From Rhizobiaceae bacterium (GTDB taxonomy: Bacteria > Pseudomonadota > Alphaproteobacteria > Rhizobiales > Rhizobiaceae): a DNA stretch of 64,000 nucleotides. Below the pieces are notes generated by a model. That model saw only the letters and a list, made by a program, of their open reading frames with translations. It did no database searches and had not been told where the DNA came from. The DNA lies in contig JAESUH010000070.1 in the NCBI GenBank assembly GCA_016763155.1, forward strand, positions 2,507 to 66,506, read 5' to 3'. The position numbers were made by a program, and so were the translations under genes. Positions 4,517 through 54,372 of the stretch are shown here, piece after piece; position 1 is the first letter of the stretch; each line of letters begins with the position of its first letter.

Positions 4517-4646
4517 TTTTTTTGAGGCTCGAATTAAAGAGCTTTTTGATGGTTGTGGGAGGGAACTTCAACCATTTCGTTCACCAAAAATAGTGCGCCT
4601 TGGGCGTATTAACAATGAAATGCGTTATGCGCATAGGGAGAATTTT

Positions 4647-5696
4647 ATGAAAAAACTTAGTACCGCCCTTATGGGTGCTGTATTTGCTGCGTCACTTGCT
4701 GGCTTTGCAGGAAATGCTATTGCAGCTGGCAAAACTATTGCCGTGTCTTGGAAAATTTTCCAGGAAGAACGCTGGAAAAGAGATGAAGCTGTTATCAAGG
4801 CAATCGTTGAAGCTGCTGGTGACAAATATATTTCTTCCGATGCACAGGGTTCTGCAGCTAAGCAGTTGACCGATATCGAATCTCTGATTGCTCAGGGTGC
4901 TGATGTTCTTTTGATCGTGCCTTTCGATTCCGAAGCCATTCTTCCTGCTGTTGATAAAGCTTCTGCTGAAGGCATTCCTATGATTGCCTATGATGTTCAG
5001 ATCGAGCATCCAGATTCACTTTACGTCACTTTCGACAACATTGGCGTTGGCCGTTTGATGGCTAAAGAAATGCTGAAAGTTAAAGACAGCGGAAACTTTG
5101 CCTTCATTAAAGGTGATCCAGGCGATCCAAATGCTACATTCTTGTTCCAGGGTATCATGGAAGTTTTGAAACCAAACATGGATGCCGGCAAAATCAAAAA
5201 CGTTGGCGAAGCATTCTCCGATGGTTGGAAGCCTGAAAATGCACAGCGCAACATGGAACAGATGCTTACAGCTAACGACAACAAAATCGATGCTGTGATT
5301 TCTGAAAATGATGGCATGGCTGGTGGCGTTGTTGCAGCACTTGCTGCACAGGGCATGGCCGGTACAGTTCCTGTAACAGGTCAGGATGGCGATCTTGCTG
5401 CTCTTAACCGTGTTGCAATTGGTACTCAGCTTGTATCAATCTGGAAAGATAGCCGCGCGCTTGGTAAAGTTGCTGCAGAAGCTGCTTTGATGCTTGCTAA
5501 TGGCAAAGCACTGAAAGACATTCCTGGTACTGCACCATTCTCAGGTGGCAAACGCGGTGTAACCGTTACTTCAATCCTGCTTGCTCCAACAGCAATCACC
5601 AAAGACACTCTTGGTAAAGTGATTGATGCTGGCTGGATCGACAAAGCAACTGCTTGTGCCGGTGCTGATGCTGCAATGGTTAGCGCTTGTAAATAA
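4647..5696 (+). CDS. xylF: D-xylose ABC transporter substrate-binding protein
   Basis: Signal peptide MKKLSTALMGAVFAASLAGFAGNAIA. Periplasmic sugar-binding (family 1 / CUT2) sequence. ATG 4647 is preceded by AGGGAG. Lies in a xylFHG-xylB-xylA context. Confidence 0.85.
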   Translation: MKKLSTALMGAVFAASLAGFAGNAIAAGKTIAVSWKIFQEERWKRDEAVIKAIVEAAGDKYISSDAQGSAAKQLTDIESLIAQGADVLLIVPFDSEAILPAVDKASAEGIPMIAYDVQIEHPDSLYVTFDNIGVGRLMAKEMLKVKDSGNFAFIKGDPGDPNATFLFQGIMEVLKPNMDAGKIKNVGEAFSDGWKPENAQRNMEQMLTANDNKIDAVISENDGMAGGVVAALAAQGMAGTVPVTGQDGDLAALNRVAIGTQLVSIWKDSRALGKVAAEAALMLANGKALKDIPGTAPFSGGKRGVTVTSILLAPTAITKDTLGKVIDAGWIDKATACAGADAAMVSACK

Positions 5697-39204: not shown

Positions 39205-40455
39205 TCACATTATAATATTATGGTCTGGGCCGAATGGAAATCCGGTTATATTAGTTGCGCCCGATTCGCCAATAACAAGAATATCATGTTCGCGGTATCC
39301 GCCAGCACCATCTATACCTTCCGGCACCATGATCATTGGTTCCATGGAAACCACCATGCCGGGTTGTAATATTGTGTCCACATCTTCGCGCAATTCAACG
39401 CCTGCCTCGCGACCATAATAATGGCTCAGCACACCGAAGGAATGTCCGTAACCAAAGGAGCGGTATTTTAACAAATCATGTGAGGCATAAATTTCATTGA
39501 GAGATTTTGCGATATCACTGCATTTGTTTCCTGGCCGCAATAATTTCAGTCCGGCGCGATGTACGTCGCAATTTATTTCCCACAATCGCAAATGCTCGTC
39601 GCTGGCATGGTCGCAAAATAGAGTGCGTTCAAGGGCGGTATAATACCCAAACATCATCGGGAAACAATTGAGGGACAGGATATCTCCCGATTGCACTTTC
39701 TTATTGGTGACCGGATTATGCGCGCCATCGGTGTTGATGCCGGACTGGAACCAGGTCCAGGTGTCCATCAATTCGACATGGGGAAACCTGTTGGCGATTT
39801 CTTTGACCATGGCGCTGGTTGAAGCCAAAGCCACTTCATGTTCTGCAACGTCTGCATGAATTGCGTCGACACATGCCTTTCCGCCAATATCTGCAATATT
39901 GGCGCTGATGGTAATGAGCTCTATCTCTTCATCAGATTTGAGCGAGCGCATCCACATTGAAGCTTGCGCTACATCGACGAATTCTGCGTTGGGGAATGTT
40001 TCTTTTAATGCTTCAAGATATTCAAGGTTCAAATGATCGAACTCTACGCCGATGCGGATTTTGCCACTGGCGGGGGATTGCCCGATGATTTCCCTCAATC
40101 CATGAAAAAAGTTATCTCTGCGCCAATCTGTATAAGTGACATTTTCACCATGGGTCATGCGACCCGGCTGGCCACCATCAATGCCCGCACTCAAGGTGGT
40201 GGTGTTTTGGCTGTCGATGACACAGGCATATTTGCGACCGAAATAGCAATAGAGAAAGCCGGTATAATAGTTGATGCAGTGATAACTAGTGAGAATGACG
40301 CAATGGATATCATTCTCAGCCATATGATGGCGCATGGCATTTTGCCTGCGGTCCATTTCACTGCTTGAAAACGGCGACCATGCTTTTTCACCATTATTCA
40401 ATTGCATTAGCTGGTGCATATTTGTGCTGGGGTCGATTGAATTGAAATTTTGCAT
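39205..40455 (-). CDS. Creatinase (creatine amidinohydrolase)
   Basis: Long blocks I recognise from characterised Pseudomonas-type creatinase (INYY..FLYC.FGR.YA, WTWFQSGINTDGAHNPVT, ILSLNCFPM.GYYTALERTLF, FGYGHSFG.LSHYYGREAG, GGYREHDIL). Confidence 0.9.
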   Translation of the reverse strand: MQNFNSIDPSTNMHQLMQLNNGEKAWSPFSSSEMDRRQNAMRHHMAENDIHCVILTSYHCINYYTGFLYCYFGRKYACVIDSQNTTTLSAGIDGGQPGRMTHGENVTYTDWRRDNFFHGLREIIGQSPASGKIRIGVEFDHLNLEYLEALKETFPNAEFVDVAQASMWMRSLKSDEEIELITISANIADIGGKACVDAIHADVAEHEVALASTSAMVKEIANRFPHVELMDTWTWFQSGINTDGAHNPVTNKKVQSGDILSLNCFPMMFGYYTALERTLFCDHASDEHLRLWEINCDVHRAGLKLLRPGNKCSDIAKSLNEIYASHDLLKYRSFGYGHSFGVLSHYYGREAGVELREDVDTILQPGMVVSMEPMIMVPEGIDGAGGYREHDILVIGESGATNITGFPFGPDHNIIM

Positions 40456-40630: not shown

Positions 40631-41419
40631 CTATTTGGCGATCACCAATTCAGAAATAATCTCCGATTGCAGCCAGCCGGTGATGTGGCCTGCAACTCTG
40701 GCTGCTGCCGTATCTGCATCCTGCATGGTGGCTGCCATCTCGCAAAGGGTGGCAAAGCTTTGGCCTTGCTGCACCAAATCGATCAACATGCCTTCTTCGG
40801 CATTCAGGGGCCGATACTGGCACATCATGTTGTTGCGCCAGGCTAAGGTATAAAGGGGCTCATCAAGATTTTCAGGTTGCTCTGGTGTCTCGTCTTCAAC
40901 CAGAGCCATATATATGGCGAGCGCGTTGGTTTGTTGTTTTAGCAAACAACAGGAAGAATGTAGTTTGAAAGTTAAGCCAGTGACGAGTTCGGGCGGGATT
41001 GCTGCCAGATCATCCATGGTGGCGACATCATCATTGGAAGCGTCAAAGGCATCTTCAATGGCTTTTTCTATGGCTGCAATTTCGGCAAGAACCGGATGGG
41101 CACCAGCACTTTCATGATCGGAAAGGAATTTTGGAAAATATCTGCCAAACCAGCGCACATTTGGGTGGTTTGAGGGGTAGGCTTCTACATATTGAGCGGC
41201 CAGTTGATAAAATTGTTCATCGCCAACGAATTTCCATGTGTTCTCATAGTCTCCTGACAAAATTTCGATCAGGCGCGACAGATAGGCAAATTGATAAACG
41301 CCGAAGCGTTTTTCAGCAGTTGTATTTTCGGGCACTGAAATTCGCGGTAACGTGCCGTCCGTGCGTTTAAGAATATCGCTTTGCATTTGCGACTGAAGTT
41401 CTGCCAGTTTTTTTGCCAC
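40631..41419 (-). CDS. DUF2063-family partner protein of the MNIO enzyme (BufC/MbnC-like)
   Basis: DUF2063 pattern (RFGVYQFAYLSRLIEIL...YP...FG.YFP.FL). Its GTG start shares one base with the upstream TAG stop (TAGTG). Confidence 0.85.
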   Translation of the reverse strand: MAKKLAELQSQMQSDILKRTDGTLPRISVPENTTAEKRFGVYQFAYLSRLIEILSGDYENTWKFVGDEQFYQLAAQYVEAYPSNHPNVRWFGRYFPKFLSDHESAGAHPVLAEIAAIEKAIEDAFDASNDDVATMDDLAAIPPELVTGLTFKLHSSCCLLKQQTNALAIYMALVEDETPEQPENLDEPLYTLAWRNNMMCQYRPLNAEEGMLIDLVQQGQSFATLCEMAATMQDADTAAARVAGHITGWLQSEIISELVIAK

Positions 41420-42276
41420 TATGCTGCTGTCTCCAATTGTTCATGCGACAATACCCCAGATGCAATATGGCGGGCACGGTTTAATTCGTCCAACAATTCG
41501 GCTAGGGGCGGGATGTTATCGTCGCGCTCAATCATAGTCGATACAGGGCCGAAGCGCCTTAGGGCTTTTTCATAGAGGTCAAATACTTCGTCACAAACCG
41601 GCTGGTCGTGGGTATCGATGAGCACATCGTCGCCTTCGCTGTGGCCTGCGAGATGGAATTGCACAACCCGCTCAACCGGGATTTGGTCAATGAAATTGCC
41701 GTCGTCAAACTGGTGGTTTTGTCCTGAAACAAAGACGTTGTTTACATCCAGCAATAGCCAGCAATCGGCGCGTTTGGCAATTTCTGCAACAAAGGTCCAT
41801 TCATCCATTTCGGATTCTTCGAATTCGATATAGGAGGAAACGTTTTCAATGGCGATGCGGCGACCGAGGAAATCCTGCACTTGTTCAATGCGCGAGGCCA
41901 CGTGGTTCAACGCCTCTTCTGTATAGGGAATGGGCAGCAGATCGTGGAGATTTACCCCATGCACACCGGTCCAGCATAAATGATCAGAAATCCACTTTGG
42001 ATTAACCCGATCAGCCAGGGTTTTTAATCTCGTCAGATAATCCATATTCAAGGGAGCAGTTGATGCAATCGACATGGAAACCCCGTGCATGACGAGGGGA
42101 TATCGCTCCATAATTTGATCCAGCATTTTCAGCGGGCGACCACCTTCGACCATGTAGTTTTCAGAGATTATCTCAAACCAGTCGATGGGCAATTCAGATG
42201 TCGCTTCAAGAATTTCGGTATAATGCTGAGGTCTTAACCCCAGCCCAAAACCGAGAAATGGAGGCTTTTCAACCAT
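41419..42276 (-). CDS. DUF692 / UPF0276 multinuclear non-haem iron oxidase (MNIO; BufB/MbnB-like)
   Basis: LGFGLGLRPQHY, DWFEIISENYM, HGVSMSI, ISDHLCW, IENVSSY, LLLDVNN: the hallmark DUF692 TIM-barrel blocks. Confidence 0.9.
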   Translation of the reverse strand: MVEKPPFLGFGLGLRPQHYTEILEATSELPIDWFEIISENYMVEGGRPLKMLDQIMERYPLVMHGVSMSIASTAPLNMDYLTRLKTLADRVNPKWISDHLCWTGVHGVNLHDLLPIPYTEEALNHVASRIEQVQDFLGRRIAIENVSSYIEFEESEMDEWTFVAEIAKRADCWLLLDVNNVFVSGQNHQFDDGNFIDQIPVERVVQFHLAGHSEGDDVLIDTHDQPVCDEVFDLYEKALRRFGPVSTMIERDDNIPPLAELLDELNRARHIASGVLSHEQLETAA

Positions 42277-42365
42277 GGCGTGATTCCCTGCTAGAGTATT
42301 TTTAAAAAAAATGGAAGGCCGGTTTCCTGAATGGTGTGATTACAACCATAAATTATTGTGAATTT

Positions 42366-42399
42366 GAAAGCAAAAACTCGTCCGGGAAACCGGACGAGT
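42366..42399 (-). terminator. Strong hairpin plus U-tract between the precursor gene and the MNIO gene (attenuator)
   Basis: Perfect 10-bp stem ACTCGTCCGG / CCGGACGAGT (42376-42385 / 42390-42399) with a 4-nt loop. On the minus strand it is followed by TTTTGCTTTC. Confidence 0.65.
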
Positions 42400-42429
42400 G
42401 GCAATAGTCAAAGGTGAAACCAATGAGAA

Positions 42430-42696
42430 TTACATTTGTGTAAGTGTGCCGCCTTTAGCTGTGCAATCTGCTTTGGTCATTTCCAAGAAGCCCTGGCCGC
42501 TGCAGCTGTTCAAGCCTTTGCAAGAAGATTTTGCAGTTTTACAAGCGCTCTGGCCTTTGCAAGAGTTTACGCCAAAGCACTGAATTTTTGCATCCTGTGC
42601 CATAGAAGGGGTAGCCATAGTCATTGCTGAACCTGCAATGGCAAGTGCAAATGCTGCTGCTGCAAGTGTAGCGCCTGATTTTCCGGTATGTTTCAT
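42430..42696 (-). CDS. Bufferin-like RiPP precursor: Sec signal peptide plus a 6-Cys core (BufA2 / 6-Cys class, DUF2282-related)
   Basis: MKHTGKSGATLAAAAFALAIAGSAMTMATPSMA | QDAKIQCFGVNSCKGQSACKTAKSSCKGLNSCSGQGFLEMTKADCTAKGGTLTQM. GGAG RBS 9 nt upstream of ATG 42696. Lies directly upstream of the DUF692-DUF2063 pair. Confidence 0.8.
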   Translation of the reverse strand: MKHTGKSGATLAAAAFALAIAGSAMTMATPSMAQDAKIQCFGVNSCKGQSACKTAKSSCKGLNSCSGQGFLEMTKADCTAKGGTLTQM

Positions 42697-42830
42697 AGAA
42701 CCAATTCTCCAAATAGTGTTTTCCCAAAACGGGTAAGTCACTTTGAGCAAGTTCAATGATGACTATCAATTAACGCTTTCGTGAAGTCGGGAATATAGTT
42801 CCATATTTTCCATAAGCTATTGATTTATAA

Positions 42831-49850: not shown

Positions 49851-51098
49851 ATGTGGCCAATAGCTTGGGACTGGATGAGTCTTGCAATTCGCTGGGTGCA
49901 TATTATCACCGGCATTGCGTGGATCGGATCGTCGTTTTATTTCATCGCGCTTGATCTTAGCCTGAAAAAACACAAAGGCCTGCCCGAAGGGGTTGGCGGT
50001 GATACCTGGCAGGTGCATGGGGGTGGTTTTTACCACATGCAAAAATATACAGTAGCGCCTGCCTCCATGCCGGAAGAGCTGACATGGTTCAAATGGGAAT
50101 CCTATGCCACATGGATTTCCGGCTTCTTTATGATTTGCGTTCTCTATTACGGTTCATCAGAGCTGTTTTTGATTGATCGCAATGTTGCGGATTTAAGCCA
50201 GTGGCAGGCCATCGGGCTTGGCTTTGGCGGCATGTTGCTTGGCTGGGTGCTTTATGATCAGCTTTGCAAATCTCCCATCGGCAAGAACGACAATCTGCTT
50301 TCCATATTGGTGTTTATCTTTACGGTGGCAATTGGCTGGGGCTTTTTGCAGGTGTTTTCCGGGCGTGGGGCATTTGTCCACACTGGCGCGCTGATTGCGA
50401 CCATCATGTCAGCCAATGTGATCATGATTATCATTCCTAACCAGAAGAAAACCGTTGCGTCCCTGCTGGCAGGAGAAGCGCCTGATCCGTCTCTTGGCCT
50501 GCAGGCCAAGCAGCGTTCAATGCATAATAATTATCTCACCTTGCCGGTGTTGTTCCTGATGCTATCGAACCATTATCCGCTGGCTTATGCCACCAAATAT
50601 GCGTGGATCATCATCGCGCTGGTGCTGGTGATTGGCGTGGTAATTCGCCACTTTTTCAACATGCATCATGCCAAAAAGGGTGAGCCTTTCTGGACATGGC
50701 TGGTGGCGACGATTTGCTTCATTCTCATCATGTGGCTGTCACAGGCGGGACCTGTAAACCATGAGGAAGCCGCAAGCTCTACCCACGCGCCAACGGCAAT
50801 TGAAGAGAAATTGGCAAGTGCCGAAAATTTCGAAATGGTGCGCGACATAGTGCTTGGCCGCTGTTCCATGTGCCACGCACAAGAACCCGGCTGGGAAGGC
50901 ATCCCTTTCCCACCCAAAAGCGTGGTGCTGGAAGAAGACAAAGACATCATCCGCCACGCAGAACTAATCTACAAACAAGCCGCAATCACCAACGCCATGC
51001 CGCCGGGGAATTTAAGTTTTATTACGATGGAAGAGCGTGCTGTTCTGGCAAAATGGTATGAGGAGGCGATAGGGTCTCCACGGCATTTTTTGTGGTGA
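49851..51098 (+). CDS. puuD: Membrane-bound urate hydroxylase PuuD (C-terminal cytochrome c domain)
   Basis: Polytopic N-terminal domain (IRWVHIITGIAWIGSSFYF) plus a C-terminal CSMCH haem motif. Lies in the ureide cluster. Confidence 0.85.
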   Translation: MWPIAWDWMSLAIRWVHIITGIAWIGSSFYFIALDLSLKKHKGLPEGVGGDTWQVHGGGFYHMQKYTVAPASMPEELTWFKWESYATWISGFFMICVLYYGSSELFLIDRNVADLSQWQAIGLGFGGMLLGWVLYDQLCKSPIGKNDNLLSILVFIFTVAIGWGFLQVFSGRGAFVHTGALIATIMSANVIMIIIPNQKKTVASLLAGEAPDPSLGLQAKQRSMHNNYLTLPVLFLMLSNHYPLAYATKYAWIIIALVLVIGVVIRHFFNMHHAKKGEPFWTWLVATICFILIMWLSQAGPVNHEEAASSTHAPTAIEEKLASAENFEMVRDIVLGRCSMCHAQEPGWEGIPFPPKSVVLEEDKDIIRHAELIYKQAAITNAMPPGNLSFITMEERAVLAKWYEEAIGSPRHFLW

Positions 51099-51128
51099 GG
51101 CTGCACCTAACGGATGATACATTATTAC

Positions 51129-51914
51129 CTATTGAATATTAGGCACAGGAATCCAGCTGTGCTCAGATTTTTGGTGAAGGATGCCTCTGAAGTCGATTGT
51201 TGTTGTTCCTGTTTGCTTTAGCTCTATCCGCAAAGGGTAATTTGGGCTTAGTGCTTGGCTTAATGGCTTCATATTAATCCCATTATGTTTGCTTCCATCA
51301 GTCAATACGTAGCCTGGGTCGAAACCACCAATAAATGGGCTGCCTCCCATCTTCCAGGTCAGTTCTCCTTCAGAATTTCCAATGAGCACCAAAAAGTGTG
51401 GATTCGGCTCCAGTAGATGGGATGCGTTAACAACTATTTTTTTGGTTCCGTTTTCTTCTGTTAACACTGAGTAGGAAAGATTTGAAAAACCCTGATGTTG
51501 TGGTGTGAACGATGCATTGCCTTGTGTTACGCTTACGATCTGAGCAATTGCAGGATCTAATCCAATTGTATGCATGTCGATATAAAGGGTTTGCATGAGA
51601 ACTGGCGGCATTGCTGTTCCGTCCACACGTACAGGTATTATTCTTGTATGGCCTTTTGACGCCGAGTAGAGAGCGTTTTGCCATTCGAGTCTCACCATGC
51701 CACTGTCTAAACTATTCGCCGATACGAAGAAGAAAACAAATTCTGGAGCCTCCAACCCTTTGTTCATTTGGTCAATGATTCCATCACCTGGTTTGATTGA
51801 CCATGAGTCATAAAAAACTTGATCTTCACCAAATATCCCTGTCAATTTGACCGCAACAGCTTCCACTATTGGTTTGTCGCTAAAGTTATGACTTAGAAAT
51901 ATTTTATGAGACAT
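51129..51914 (-). CDS. TIR-domain protein with a C-terminal domain of unknown function
   Basis: The N-terminal ~125 aa fit the bacterial TIR pattern (KIFLSHNFSD..., FVFFFVSANSLDSGMVRLEWQNAL with a candidate catalytic Glu). The gene and its upstream spacer look more AT-rich than the neighbours. Confidence 0.8.
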   Translation of the reverse strand: MSHKIFLSHNFSDKPIVEAVAVKLTGIFGEDQVFYDSWSIKPGDGIIDQMNKGLEAPEFVFFFVSANSLDSGMVRLEWQNALYSASKGHTRIIPVRVDGTAMPPVLMQTLYIDMHTIGLDPAIAQIVSVTQGNASFTPQHQGFSNLSYSVLTEENGTKKIVVNASHLLEPNPHFLVLIGNSEGELTWKMGGSPFIGGFDPGYVLTDGSKHNGINMKPLSQALSPNYPLRIELKQTGTTTIDFRGILHQKSEHSWIPVPNIQ

Positions 51915-52210
51915 TTTTTCAATCCGCTAAATTTAGACTTATTGAGGTATAAATTTCATTGCTAACAAATTTCACGTAATGATTTATTCAAACAGATTCT
52001 AATAATATTTGTAAATTCTTTTATTTGATTAACTGTTTGAAATAAATTGATCATTTTTGCTGCTTAGCTCTGATCTATGCAGTTCTACTGCGTGAACATG
52101 TATGGGCTGGGTGTCAACCGCTAACAACCTTTTCAACATCATCTAAATCTGACATGATGATCCTAACAAATTTGTACAAAATATTTGCCTTACCTCAGGG
52201 AGAAACAATC

Positions 52211-53008
52211 ATGAAATTTATACCTACAATCATTCTCGCGGCTGCCGCGACATTTGCTTTTGCTGCTCATTCTTTGGCGGCTGATTTGCCTGATTTGGGG
52301 GGGAAGACGATTGTTGTGGTGACTGAGAATGCTTATCCACCGTTGCAGTTTGTTGACCCGAAAACCAGCAAGGCGATTGGTTGGGAATATGATGCTGTGA
52401 ACGACATGGCCAAGCGACTTAATTTCAAGGTTGAATATCAAAACACCTCTTGGGATGCGATGATTCAGGCTGTTTCTGACGATCAGTATAATATGGGCAT
52501 GACCGGCATTACCATCAAAGATGAGCGCAAGGAGAAGGTTGATTTTTCTGATGCCTATATGCGTTCAGAAATGTTCATGCTGGTGCGTGGCGATGAGAGC
52601 CGTTTCACCGATGGCAAAAGCTTTGGTGCTTTCAAAGAGGGCCTTGTGGGCGCGCAGGCAGGTACATCACCGTTTTATACAGCCGTCTACAGCATGCTCG
52701 ATGGCGATGAAGCCAACCCGCGGGTCAAATTATTTGATACATTCGGTTCAAGCGTACAGGCTTTGAAAACCGGCGATGTGGACGTTGTGTTGACCGATGG
52801 TGTTGCTGCAAATGGCTATGTGGATGCATCCAATGGCGGCCTGAAAGTTATCGGCGACGCCATGGGTACTGAAGATTTTGGTTTCATCTTTCCTAAGGGC
52901 TCAGACCTTGTTGGGCCGATCAATGCAGCGATTGCTGAAATGAAAAAAGATGGCACCATTGCCGCCCTCAATAAGAAATGGTTTCTGGACTACAAATTTG
53001 GCCAATAA
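52211..53008 (+). CDS. Polar amino acid ABC transporter substrate-binding protein (family 3)
   Basis: Signal peptide [23 protein letters not shown]; GGGAGA RBS; family-3 pattern ([12 protein letters not shown]). Confidence 0.85.
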
Positions 53009-53058
53009 GACGGCCATTTGAAGTGATTATGCATTTTCAAATTTGCGGGTAGGGGGCG

Positions 53059-53877
53059 ATGAAATCTTCCCCTTCCGACAGCGCCACCAAGGCAGATTTT
53101 CCCTGGTGGCTGATGATAGTCATTGTTATCGGCGTTGCTCTGGCAATATTTATTGCGGTCAGCGACCTTTACGCGCAGGTTTTTCGGGCGGTTTCCAAAG
53201 GGGTGTATATCACCATCTTTGTGACCCTGCTCGGCTTTACGCTGGCCTCTGTGATTGGCTTGTTACTGGCTGTAATGGGGCTTTCCAAATCGCTGATCCT
53301 TAGACAGATTTCGCGCTTCTATGTGGAAGTCATTCGCGGTATTCCTGTTCTTGTTCTGCTGTTTTATATAGCCTTTGTCGGTGCGCCGGGTTTCGTTGCG
53401 CTGTGGAATTTAGTGACTTCGCCGCTGGTTGATGCAGGGCTTGTCGACAAGATGACCGTGCGAGATTTCCCGCTGCTGTGGCGCGCTATTATTGCGCTTA
53501 CAATTGGGTATTCTGCCTTTATTGCAGAGGTGTTTCGTGCCGGAATTCAATCGGTGGATGCGGGGCAGATTGAGGCCGCAAAGGCGCTGGGGCTTTCCAG
53601 CTTTAAGCGCTTTCGCTTTATTGTTATGCCTCAGGCCATCCGCACCATTGCGCCACCGCTGGGCAATGATTTTATCGCTATGGTGAAAGATTCCTCGCTG
53701 GTTTCCATCCTTGGCGTTGCCGATGTTACCCAGATGGGCAAGATATACGCCTCGGGCTCGTTCCGGTTTTTCGAAACCTATTCTATTGTGGCTTACATTT
53801 ATTTGCTTATGACCATCAGCCTGTCTTTGATGCTGAGAGCGCTGGAGCGCCGTATGCGTAAAAAATGGCAGGAGTGA
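53059..53877 (+). CDS. Polar amino acid ABC transporter permease (His/Glu/Gln/Arg/opine family)
   Basis: EAA loop (EAAKALGLSSFKRFRFIVMPQA); about 5-6 TM segments. Confidence 0.88.
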   Translation: MKSSPSDSATKADFPWWLMIVIVIGVALAIFIAVSDLYAQVFRAVSKGVYITIFVTLLGFTLASVIGLLLAVMGLSKSLILRQISRFYVEVIRGIPVLVLLFYIAFVGAPGFVALWNLVTSPLVDAGLVDKMTVRDFPLLWRAIIALTIGYSAFIAEVFRAGIQSVDAGQIEAAKALGLSSFKRFRFIVMPQAIRTIAPPLGNDFIAMVKDSSLVSILGVADVTQMGKIYASGSFRFFETYSIVAYIYLLMTISLSLMLRALERRMRKKWQE

Positions 53878-53895: not shown

Positions 53896-54372
53896 CTAGC
53901 TGCGTTGTTTTCCAACACGGCCAGCAGTTTTTGGCCAAGGCAGCTTCAATTGGGCCTCGGCAATTGGTTTCAATAATTTGATAATATGGGCGCTGGCGGG
54001 TACGGCTTTGTTTTCTTTCATGTCCACATGCAGCAAAATCTGCTCGCCACTGGCCAGTTCCATGCCTGTTTTGCCATGCAGGATGCGTTGGAAAATGTGG
54101 AGCTTCTTTTCGCTCCAGTCCAGCAGTTGAAATTCTACGGCTACGGGCTCACCTTCGCGAATTTCAGTCTTGTTGAGGATGTGGGTTTCCACGGAATAGT
54201 AGGAAAAACCGGTGGCTACATAGTCCATATCCATGCCAATTCTGCGCAGGAATTCATCCGATCCTTCGCTGATCAAATGCAGATAGCGGGCTTCTGTCAT
54301 GTGGCCGTTATAGTCTATCCAGTCTTCATGGATTCGGGTCTCGAAAATTTTAATAGGTTTTGTCGCATCCAT
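53896..54372 (-). CDS. Hotdog-fold acyl-CoA thioesterase (4HBT/YbgC-like)
   Basis: Pattern F.....V...D.D.NGHM. Preferred start ATG 54372 avoids overlap with the divergent CoA-transferase gene. Confidence 0.75.
   Translation of the reverse strand: MDATKPIKIFETRIHEDWIDYNGHMTEARYLHLISEGSDEFLRRIGMDMDYVATGFSYYSVETHILNKTEIREGEPVAVEFQLLDWSEKKLHIFQRILHGKTGMELASGEQILLHVDMKENKAVPASAHIIKLLKPIAEAQLKLPWPKTAGRVGKQRS

Follow-up and report, generated by a model that had tools for sequence, protein, structure and literature searches.

What does a bacterial TIR-domain gene do when no partner gene stands beside it? The question is raised by positions 51129-51914 (minus strand) of the 64,000-nt stretch analysed here, called the window below, which is part of contig JAESUH010000070.1 of a Rhizobiaceae bacterium. 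The gene lies between puuD and the gene of a family-3 solute-binding protein (SBP), and its product of 261 aa combines an N-terminal TIR domain with a C-terminal half modelled as a beta-sandwich. We regard it as very probably an anti-phage defence gene. The reading that we prefer, with a probability of roughly 0.6, is by analogy with SpbK that the protein would be a self-contained, single-protein NADase acting through abortive infection. Directly established are the TIR domain with Glu77, a separate beta-sandwich, the solitary, mobile and AT-rich nature of a gene under purifying selection, and its positions in hotspots of defence that are known or apparent. The parts of the gene are the following:

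51129-51914, minus strand: complete TIR plus beta-sandwich gene (stop codon at 51129-51131)
51561-51914, minus strand: TIR domain, residues 1-118 (Pfam TIR_2 and Foldseek)
51684-51686, minus strand: codon of Glu77, the predicted catalytic glutamate (TTC on the plus strand, GAA on the minus strand)
51477-51560, minus strand: linker, residues 119-146, a helix and then the loop QGNASFTPQHQGFSNL (from identity and AlphaFold)
51132-51476, minus strand: C-terminal nine-strand beta-sandwich, residues 147-261, a putative sensor or docking module (from a domain-only model)

TIR domain and predicted active site

The initial annotation, made from the letters alone, had proposed a 261-aa protein with a bacterial TIR pattern and a conserved position for the glutamate of NAD+ cleavage, and these proposals hold. 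The open reading frame (ORF) of 786 nt is present in the window's ORF list with the motifs quoted for it (IFLSH and FVFFFVSANSLDSGMVRLEWQNAL), it is intact, and it retains all family-invariant residues. Its product is 100% identical to MBL4598682.1 and MBL4697038.1, both from Rhizobiaceae metagenome-assembled genomes (MAGs). Residues 5-116 score 77.2 bits with Pfam TIR_2 (PF13676; E = 2e-21), the gathering cutoff of that profile being 28. The predicted catalytic residue, Glu77, is unchanged in 51 of 51 family sequences. Phmmer and profile alignments both set it on the glutamate of the W-x-x-x-E motif in four reference proteins, PdTIR, BtpA, Cat1 and the TIR-TPR protein 9m0n. Glu77 is directly followed by an equally invariant Trp78 (motif M-x-x-x-E-W).

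The full protein was modelled with AlphaFold at a mean predicted local distance difference test score (pLDDT) of 80 and a predicted template-modelling score (pTM) of 0.50. Foldseek places its TIR fold onto those of PdTIR, AbTir, BtTir, BtpA, MyD88 and SARM1 with probability 1.0 and target-normalised template-modelling (TM) scores of 0.6-0.7. Identity of the TIR core to the PDB matches is 20-27%, and PdTIR and Brucella BtpA/TcpB lead these matches by sequence and fold together. AbTir, SARM1 and BtpA among the fold matches are NADase TIRs, proven so for AbTir, and in TIR NADases the active site forms on self-association.

A variable C-terminal beta-sandwich

The second half of the protein, a C-terminal domain of 115 residues, had been overlooked by the initial annotation. 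Modelled alone, residues 147-261 form a nine-strand beta-sandwich (pLDDT 92.4, pTM 0.85), for which Pfam, NCBIfam and PHROGs returned no match. In the PDB, Foldseek pairs it weakly (TM ≤0.53, E ≥2.5e-3) with cohesin, CBM3 and the diphtheria-toxin receptor-binding domain, and the single, marginal match in BFVD (E = 9e-4, TM 0.32) is not convincing. The domain was also the query of an exhaustive phmmer search through 1.84 billion cluster representatives, which gave 72 matches. In the full-length ones among them the beta-sandwich follows ~120 N-terminal residues, and 12 of 12 matches that were retrieved are either fusions to a TIR or fragments of such a fusion with a shortened N-terminus. Since the domain is seen only in such fusions and fragments, we take it to be private to the TIR plus beta-sandwich family.

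That family is large: a search of 5.8 billion proteins at E ≤1e-3 returned 1,107 matches from Alpha-, Beta- and Gammaproteobacteria, Bacillota and Gemmatimonadota, and the best 120 are ~260-300 aa long with full-length coverage. The nearest relatives beyond the source MAG, 60-72% identical, come from Sphingomonas, Halomonas, Vibrio fluvialis, Rhodocista and Gemmatimonadales; remoter members come from Ralstonia, Bacillus thuringiensis, E. coli and Klebsiella.

The two halves diverge at different rates. Mean pairwise identity is 82% in the TIR domain, 89% in the linker, which is the most conserved part of the protein, and 46% in the C-terminal domain. A codon analysis of 17 moderately diverged pairs, which are mutually non-independent, gave a median ratio of nonsynonymous to synonymous rates (dN/dS) of 0.064 for TIR plus linker and of 0.166 for the C-terminal domain; the C-terminal value was above the TIR value in 17/17 pairs, and its maximum was ≤0.6. 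Both halves are thus under purifying selection, and the C-terminal half gains amino-acid changes about three times faster than the TIR half. Positive selection on the C-terminal domain was rejected, the domain-wide dN/dS being <1. The divergence pattern (TIR 82% vs C-terminal 46%), as read from the alignments, fits a conserved enzyme joined to a variable sensor, and the beta-sandwich is the likely sensor.

Within the linker, the loop QGNASFTPQHQGFSNL (51477-51518, residues 132-146) is nearly invariant across phyla, yet AlphaFold gives it a pLDDT <50 at residues 135-143. The combination hints at an interface or switch that would form only in an oligomer or complex.

A solitary and mobile gene

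The genomic context of the family was studied in loci gathered by exact protein look-up (8), from metagenomes (80) and from IMG/VR (32). ORFs within ±4 genes of the TIR gene were clustered for 119 loci, which form 78 groups at 90% TIR identity, and no neighbour family recurs in >4 of the 78 groups. Among 130 immediately flanking ORFs, a Pfam scan found no family in >2; the PADLOC hits, methyltransferases and DRT reverse transcriptases, are scattered, none of them recurs, and no defence effector is repeated. Although of similar size, the ORFs that lie upstream in the Vibrio and Bacillus-plasmid loci are unrelated to each other (E = 35). A conserved nearby partner gene is ruled out by the clustering together with these scans, and the gene is genomically solitary in every lineage examined.

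It is also mobile by itself. Members adjoin integrases and portal and terminase genes, lie on 32 IMG/VR contigs, and are carried by ~8-kb Bacillus plasmids beside a recombinase. One of these, the B. thuringiensis plasmid pHS18-8 (8,287 bp, non-mobilizable), gives about one tenth of its length to its family member, whose neighbours are a tyrosine recombinase, a helix-turn-helix regulator and DUF3967/DUF6731 proteins; another Bacillus plasmid, of ~8.8 kb, also bears a full-length member. The gene is AT-richer than DNA >1.5 kb away in 47 of 50 dereplicated loci, by a mean of 9.3 GC points (mean difference -9.3; Wilcoxon p = 8e-12), and its GC content follows that of the host (r = 0.75).

In the window, the gene has a GC content of 0.422, the minimum among 48 long ORFs (mean 0.488, standard deviation 0.021) and in the 2nd percentile of equal-size windows, and a GC content at third codon positions (GC3) of 0.389. 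Its AT-richness is real but modest. The full spacer upstream of it, 51915-52210 (296 bp), has a GC content of 0.311, and the part 51915-52153 one of 0.305, in the 0.2 percentile of equal-size windows. The windowed GC content thus agrees with the impression, gained from the bare letters, that the gene and its ~300-bp spacer are more AT-rich than the flanking genes.

The E. coli homologue in P2-like prophages

Nine of 5,426 complete E. coli genomes encode a homologue of 266 aa (WP_000576799 or WP_000576798), which is full length and 40% identical over residues 5-258 (E = 7e-70). Its place, in the two genomes inspected and three IMG/VR contigs alike, is a P2-like prophage, where the replication gene gpA flanks it on one side and the portal gene gpQ on the other. 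This interval is the old/tin locus, an anti-phage hotspot with 1,650 gene arrangements and validated systems (Rousset et al. 2022, PMC9122126), and the supplementary tables of that study include solitary TIR_2 genes in P2 hotspots; we found in it no indication of testing for the E. coli homologue. Placed there, the E. coli member is cargo of a variable locus between conserved anchors whose alternative cargo includes known defence genes.

The co-cargo beside the E. coli TIR gene varies: it is a 386-aa hypothetical protein in one locus (L202, 5459-6619) and a DUF4145 protein in another (L203, 5809-6549). Neither protein has a match in NCBIfam, and both may be further defence candidates.

The puuD junction in related genomes

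The gene is missing at 80 of 80 PuuD-anchored loci of related genomes, both closest sisters included, which excludes a housekeeping resident. Conservation at this locus across the family, which would have refuted the initial annotation, is not seen. The two closest sister genomes (loci L009 and L010, PuuD 87-89% identical) were compared with the window by blastn and tblastn. Synteny with both ends at 51096, in the puuD stop codon, and restarts at a thioesterase gene, near 53908 for L009 and 54017 for L010. The strain-specific segment is therefore bigger than the initial annotation had it, as it includes the SBP gene and a permease gene. The features of the junction are the following:

51099-51128, no strand: 30 bp that separate the stop codons of the convergent puuD and TIR genes, at the left edge of the strain-specific segment
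51097-53907, no strand: strain-specific segment with the TIR gene, the spacer, the SBP gene (52211-53008) and the permease gene (53059-53877), from blastn/tblastn against L009 and L010
51097-53907 in the window, 7247-8346 in L009 and 7247-8393 in L010, no strand: junction cargo-exchange site with three different AT-rich cargos

Where the window has the TIR gene, L009 has a 334-aa ORF with a PADLOC match to Aga_SIR2 (6e-6), a Pfam SIR2_2 match below cutoff and the motifs GAGFSAG and KLHGS. L010 has a 267-aa ORF with a Zn-ribbon and multiple transmembrane segments, convergent with puuD as the TIR gene is. The GC content of the cargo is 0.42 for the TIR gene, 0.42 in L009 and 0.37 in L010, and that of the hosts is 0.49. 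The puuD-thioesterase junction is a small cargo-exchange site; a defence identity of the two sister-genome cargos is weakly supported by their sequences.

The SBP and permease genes (52211-53877) have no ABC ATPase gene alongside and are missing here in both sisters. Their GC content of 0.47-0.51 looks native, and they may have been relocated here or be an incomplete transporter.

Comparison with known TIR systems

The closest likeness is to SpbK of Bacillus subtilis ICEBs1 (PMC12847820), also a single gene on a mobile element whose product joins a TIR domain with catalytic Glu to a non-TIR sensor domain. In this single-protein abortive-infection defence the NADase is switched on once binding of the non-TIR domain to the dodecameric portal of the phage has brought the TIRs together (PMC12847820). 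Its sensor, however, is N-terminal and its TIR C-terminal; in the family described here the order is reversed, and the putative sensor is an unrelated beta-sandwich. Membership in SpbK was rejected, only residues 3-71 matching positions 149-221 of the SpbK model (PADLOC E = 2e-4) and PDB entry 9phb being matched at E = 0.002-0.02.

TIR-V, -VI and -IX of E. coli are likewise stand-alone single proteins with no Pfam domain besides TIR; they protect in experiments, their catalytic-site mutants are inactive, and what sets them off is a portal or tail-fibre protein of the phage (Wang et al. 2024, PMC11350192). The superimposable C-terminus and differing N-terminus of TIR-V and TIR-IX imply a C-terminal TIR, the opposite of the family here. 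The set of that study comprises 64 clusters, and the comparison made here is with their published description.

Thoeris ThsB, which senses phage proteins, is also a small TIR protein of bacteria and has a catalytic Glu, but Thoeris needs an adjacent ThsA effector (SIR2-SLOG, Macro or transmembrane). It was rejected, as no ThsA-type neighbour was found in the window and none recurs in the 78 loci or the 130 flanking ORFs, and no ThsB profile hidden Markov model (HMM) or structure matched. The E. coli member shares the gpA-gpQ hotspot with old, tin and the 2TM+1TM+TIR system (PMC9122126), whereas the window copy is chromosomal and outside a prophage; the validated TIR systems of that study, TIR-NLR (STAND+TPR) and the three-gene 2TM+1TM+TIR, do not resemble the two-domain protein. 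PdTIR, BtpA/TcpB and AbTir are the nearest solved TIR cores, but in these proteins the TIR is C-terminal, after a coiled-coil or other N-terminal region, and there is no beta-sandwich.

Further candidates fell away one by one. The TIR effectors of CBASS/Pycsar (TIR-SAVED, TIR-STING) were rejected since the C-terminal fold is cohesin/CBM-like and not SAVED or STING, and there is no cyclase neighbour. For SPARTA (TIR-APAZ with short pAgo) the Foldseek matches are TIR-only, with root-mean-square deviations of 12-24 Å, and there is no Argonaute neighbour. PDC-S66 reaches 30.7 bits, with residues 3-95 on positions 149-240 of a 282-position model, so that the match covers only the TIR, and at a different place; the NCBIfam match to retron-TIR is below threshold, and TIR-NLR was rejected as well, its PADLOC match being partial and confined to the TIR. 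A PADLOC scan of the protein at E ≤1 returned only the models PDC-S66, TIR-NLR, spbK, bSEFIR, Aga_TIR and RT-TIR. Judged by its sequence, the protein stands outside every named system that can be tested in this way.

Proposed mechanism and rival explanations

In the mechanism that we propose, the N-terminal TIR would be an NAD+-cleaving enzyme that is inactive while the protein is dispersed. The fast-evolving beta-sandwich would bind a repetitive phage structure made in infection, such as the portal, capsid, tail tube or tail fibre, and the docking of many copies would produce head-to-tail TIR arrays that complete the active site around Glu77. NAD+ would then be hydrolysed, possibly to ADP-ribose (ADPR) or cyclic ADP-ribose (cADPR), and under NAD+ starvation phage production would abort. 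The gene would have come by horizontal transfer into the small variable spot downstream of puuD. We infer the NADase activity, the clustering-dependent activation, the phage sensing by the C-terminal domain and the abortive outcome by analogy with the characterised single-protein systems.

Several points weigh against this reading. The position four before Glu77, a Trp in reference NADase TIRs, is Met73 here and in at least 90% of the family, and the chemistry may be different or the activity weak. The PADLOC 2.0 matches are weak, partial and limited to the TIR (PDC-S66 5e-8, spbK 2e-4). In the full-length model, a pTM of 0.50 leaves the mutual orientation of TIR and beta-sandwich unfixed, and the structural matches of the C-terminal fold are generic and do not identify its ligand. 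A C-terminal dN/dS well under 1 suits relaxed constraint equally with an arms race. The 334-aa cargo of L009 is only weakly SIR2-like, with no match in NCBIfam, PDB and PHROG searches, and no family member was found in 50,697 deposited phage genomes (INPHARED). A full-text search, E. coli accessions included, found no published experiment on NADase activity or phage protection for any family member.

Of the two possibilities that the initial annotation had offered, a single-gene defence module and an orphan sensor with its effector elsewhere, the lack of a recurrent neighbour, the lone transfer and the P2 hotspot favour the former and disfavour the latter. An orphan sensor would be a Thoeris-like signal generator, making a cADPR-type or His-ADPR-type messenger for an effector encoded elsewhere in the genome. 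Many bacterial TIRs do make signals rather than deplete NAD+ (PMC12847820), and the deviation from W-x-x-x-E could mean another product chemistry. However, ThsA, SLOG, Macro, SAVED or caspase-like neighbours are neither present in the window nor recurrent in the 78 loci, the PADLOC scan gave no ThsB model, and ThsB structures are not among the sequence or fold matches. The gene has crossed between phyla, reached 8-kb plasmids and entered the size-limited P2 hotspot, each time alone; a need for one specific unlinked effector fits badly with such a spread, and we hold a signal generator to be improbable. Much the same low chance applies to a role in competition between mobile elements, or in addiction to them, in which the gene, carried by prophages or plasmids, would act as a toxin or in superinfection exclusion, and the window copy would be a leftover of past insertion with little current function. 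The members in P2 prophages, IMG/VR contigs and small plasmids and beside integrases speak for it, and the lack of an integrase or att-like direct repeat around the window gene suggests an old insertion. Yet the ORF is intact with all invariant residues, the family is under purifying selection, and no antitoxin-like partner recurs, the Vibrio and Bacillus upstream ORFs being unrelated. Exclusion by prophage hotspot genes is, moreover, anti-phage defence itself (PMC9122126), and here this rival overlaps the preferred single-protein defence.

A TIR of ordinary physiology, a non-enzymatic scaffold or regulator whose defence-like context is coincidental, seems slightly less probable again. It gains from the finding that 20 of 32 E. 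coli TIR clusters gave no protection against a phage panel (Wang et al., PMC11350192), and from the Met in place of the canonical Trp; it loses by the invariant Glu77 and the very high TIR conservation, which point to a constrained active site, and by a patchy distribution, a foreign AT-rich signature (47/50 loci), hotspot positions and absence from all 80 related PuuD loci, which are unlike a housekeeping gene. Very unlikely, finally, is a host-directed virulence or symbiosis effector of the Tcp kind (cf. BtpA/TcpB and PdTIR), which would disturb eukaryotic TIR signalling or drain host NAD+. PdTIR and Brucella BtpA/TcpB are the top PDB matches and the host belongs to the Rhizobiaceae, but the likeness is limited to the generic TIR core, and the architecture differs (N-terminal TIR, C-terminal beta-sandwich). 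The family is also found in P2 hotspots and in free-living taxa of the sea, soil and wastewater, and no secretion-system genes lie near the gene in the window.

Neighbouring genes and other features of the window

The gene is convergent with puuD (Urate_ox_N, 49851-51098), their stop codons being 30 bp apart, and divergent from the SBP gene, which starts at 52211; it has no co-oriented neighbour. This arrangement, as well as the lack of an adjacent ThsA-like, SLOG, Macro or SIR2 effector, had been described correctly from the letters, and a Pfam scan found no ThsA, SLOG, Macro or SIR2 gene adjoining it. No SAVED or caspase-like neighbour is present in the window either, and among the 25 Pfam families listed for the remaining 40 long window ORFs all are metabolic or transport families.

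A terminator-like hairpin with a T-run lies at 51142-51163 (plus strand), just beyond the puuD stop and within the 3′ end of the TIR coding sequence. Termination of puuD would therefore overlap the end of the TIR gene.

On its other side the gene is bounded by the spacer:

51915-52210, no strand: AT-rich divergent spacer in which the promoters of both the TIR and the SBP gene presumably lie (GC content 0.31, bottom 0.2%)

A scan of this spacer for the sigma-70 consensus gave no promoter ahead of the TIR gene, and the spacer sequence does not resemble the upstream regions of other family members. Around the gene, att-like direct repeats, an integrase and a tRNA were looked for and none was found; the repeats present are short and at chance level, apart from one perfect 15-nt inverted repeat, ATGAAATTTATACCT, at 51945-51959 and 52211-52225, flanking the AT-rich spacer. 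Its right arm coincides with codons 1-5 of the SBP gene (MKFIP), and its left arm is a 6-codon mini-ORF upstream of the TIR gene. A further copy with one mismatch lies at 39483-39497, and at ≤2 mismatches three matches were observed against a chance expectation of 0.28.

Elsewhere in the window, at 40631-42700 (minus strand), a gene of the MbnB/TglH/ChrH family (DUF692-type) and an HvfC_N-domain gene lie downstream of an 88-aa ORF. According to gene calls and Pfam, this order is the layout of a cluster for a peptide like the ribosomally synthesized and post-translationally modified peptides (RiPP-like) or for a metal-binding peptide. The ORF at 4593-5696 (plus strand) has the minimum GC3 in the window (0.356, under that of the TIR gene) at an overall GC content of 0.46, and may be another foreign or atypically expressed gene.

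Significance

Single-protein TIR defences are the simplest bacterial counterparts of the TIR immune receptors of plants and animals, and the trigger and activation mechanism are known for few of them (SpbK and E. coli TIR-V, -VI and -IX). That a solitary TIR gene should serve defence is unsurprising as such; the gain is a large, tractable family with a new candidate sensor domain. Its appeal lies in a compact protein of 261 aa and two domains, >1,100 homologues, a conserved enzymatic half and a variable candidate-sensor half, with one member in the P2 prophages of the genetically tractable E. coli.

Tentatively, the protein may be the founding member of a widespread family of single-protein TIR receptors in which a new beta-sandwich recognises a phage structural protein, and in which the QGNASFTPQHQGFSNL loop and the M-x-x-x-E-W motif would amount to a new activation switch or product chemistry, unlike those of SpbK, Thoeris and TIR-V/IX. 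If the proposed defence function is true, the family would extend the TIR repertoire by a new sensor module, one that could easily be dissected by swaps of the C-terminal domain, and would provide a better annotation for many genes now labelled merely "TIR domain-containing protein".

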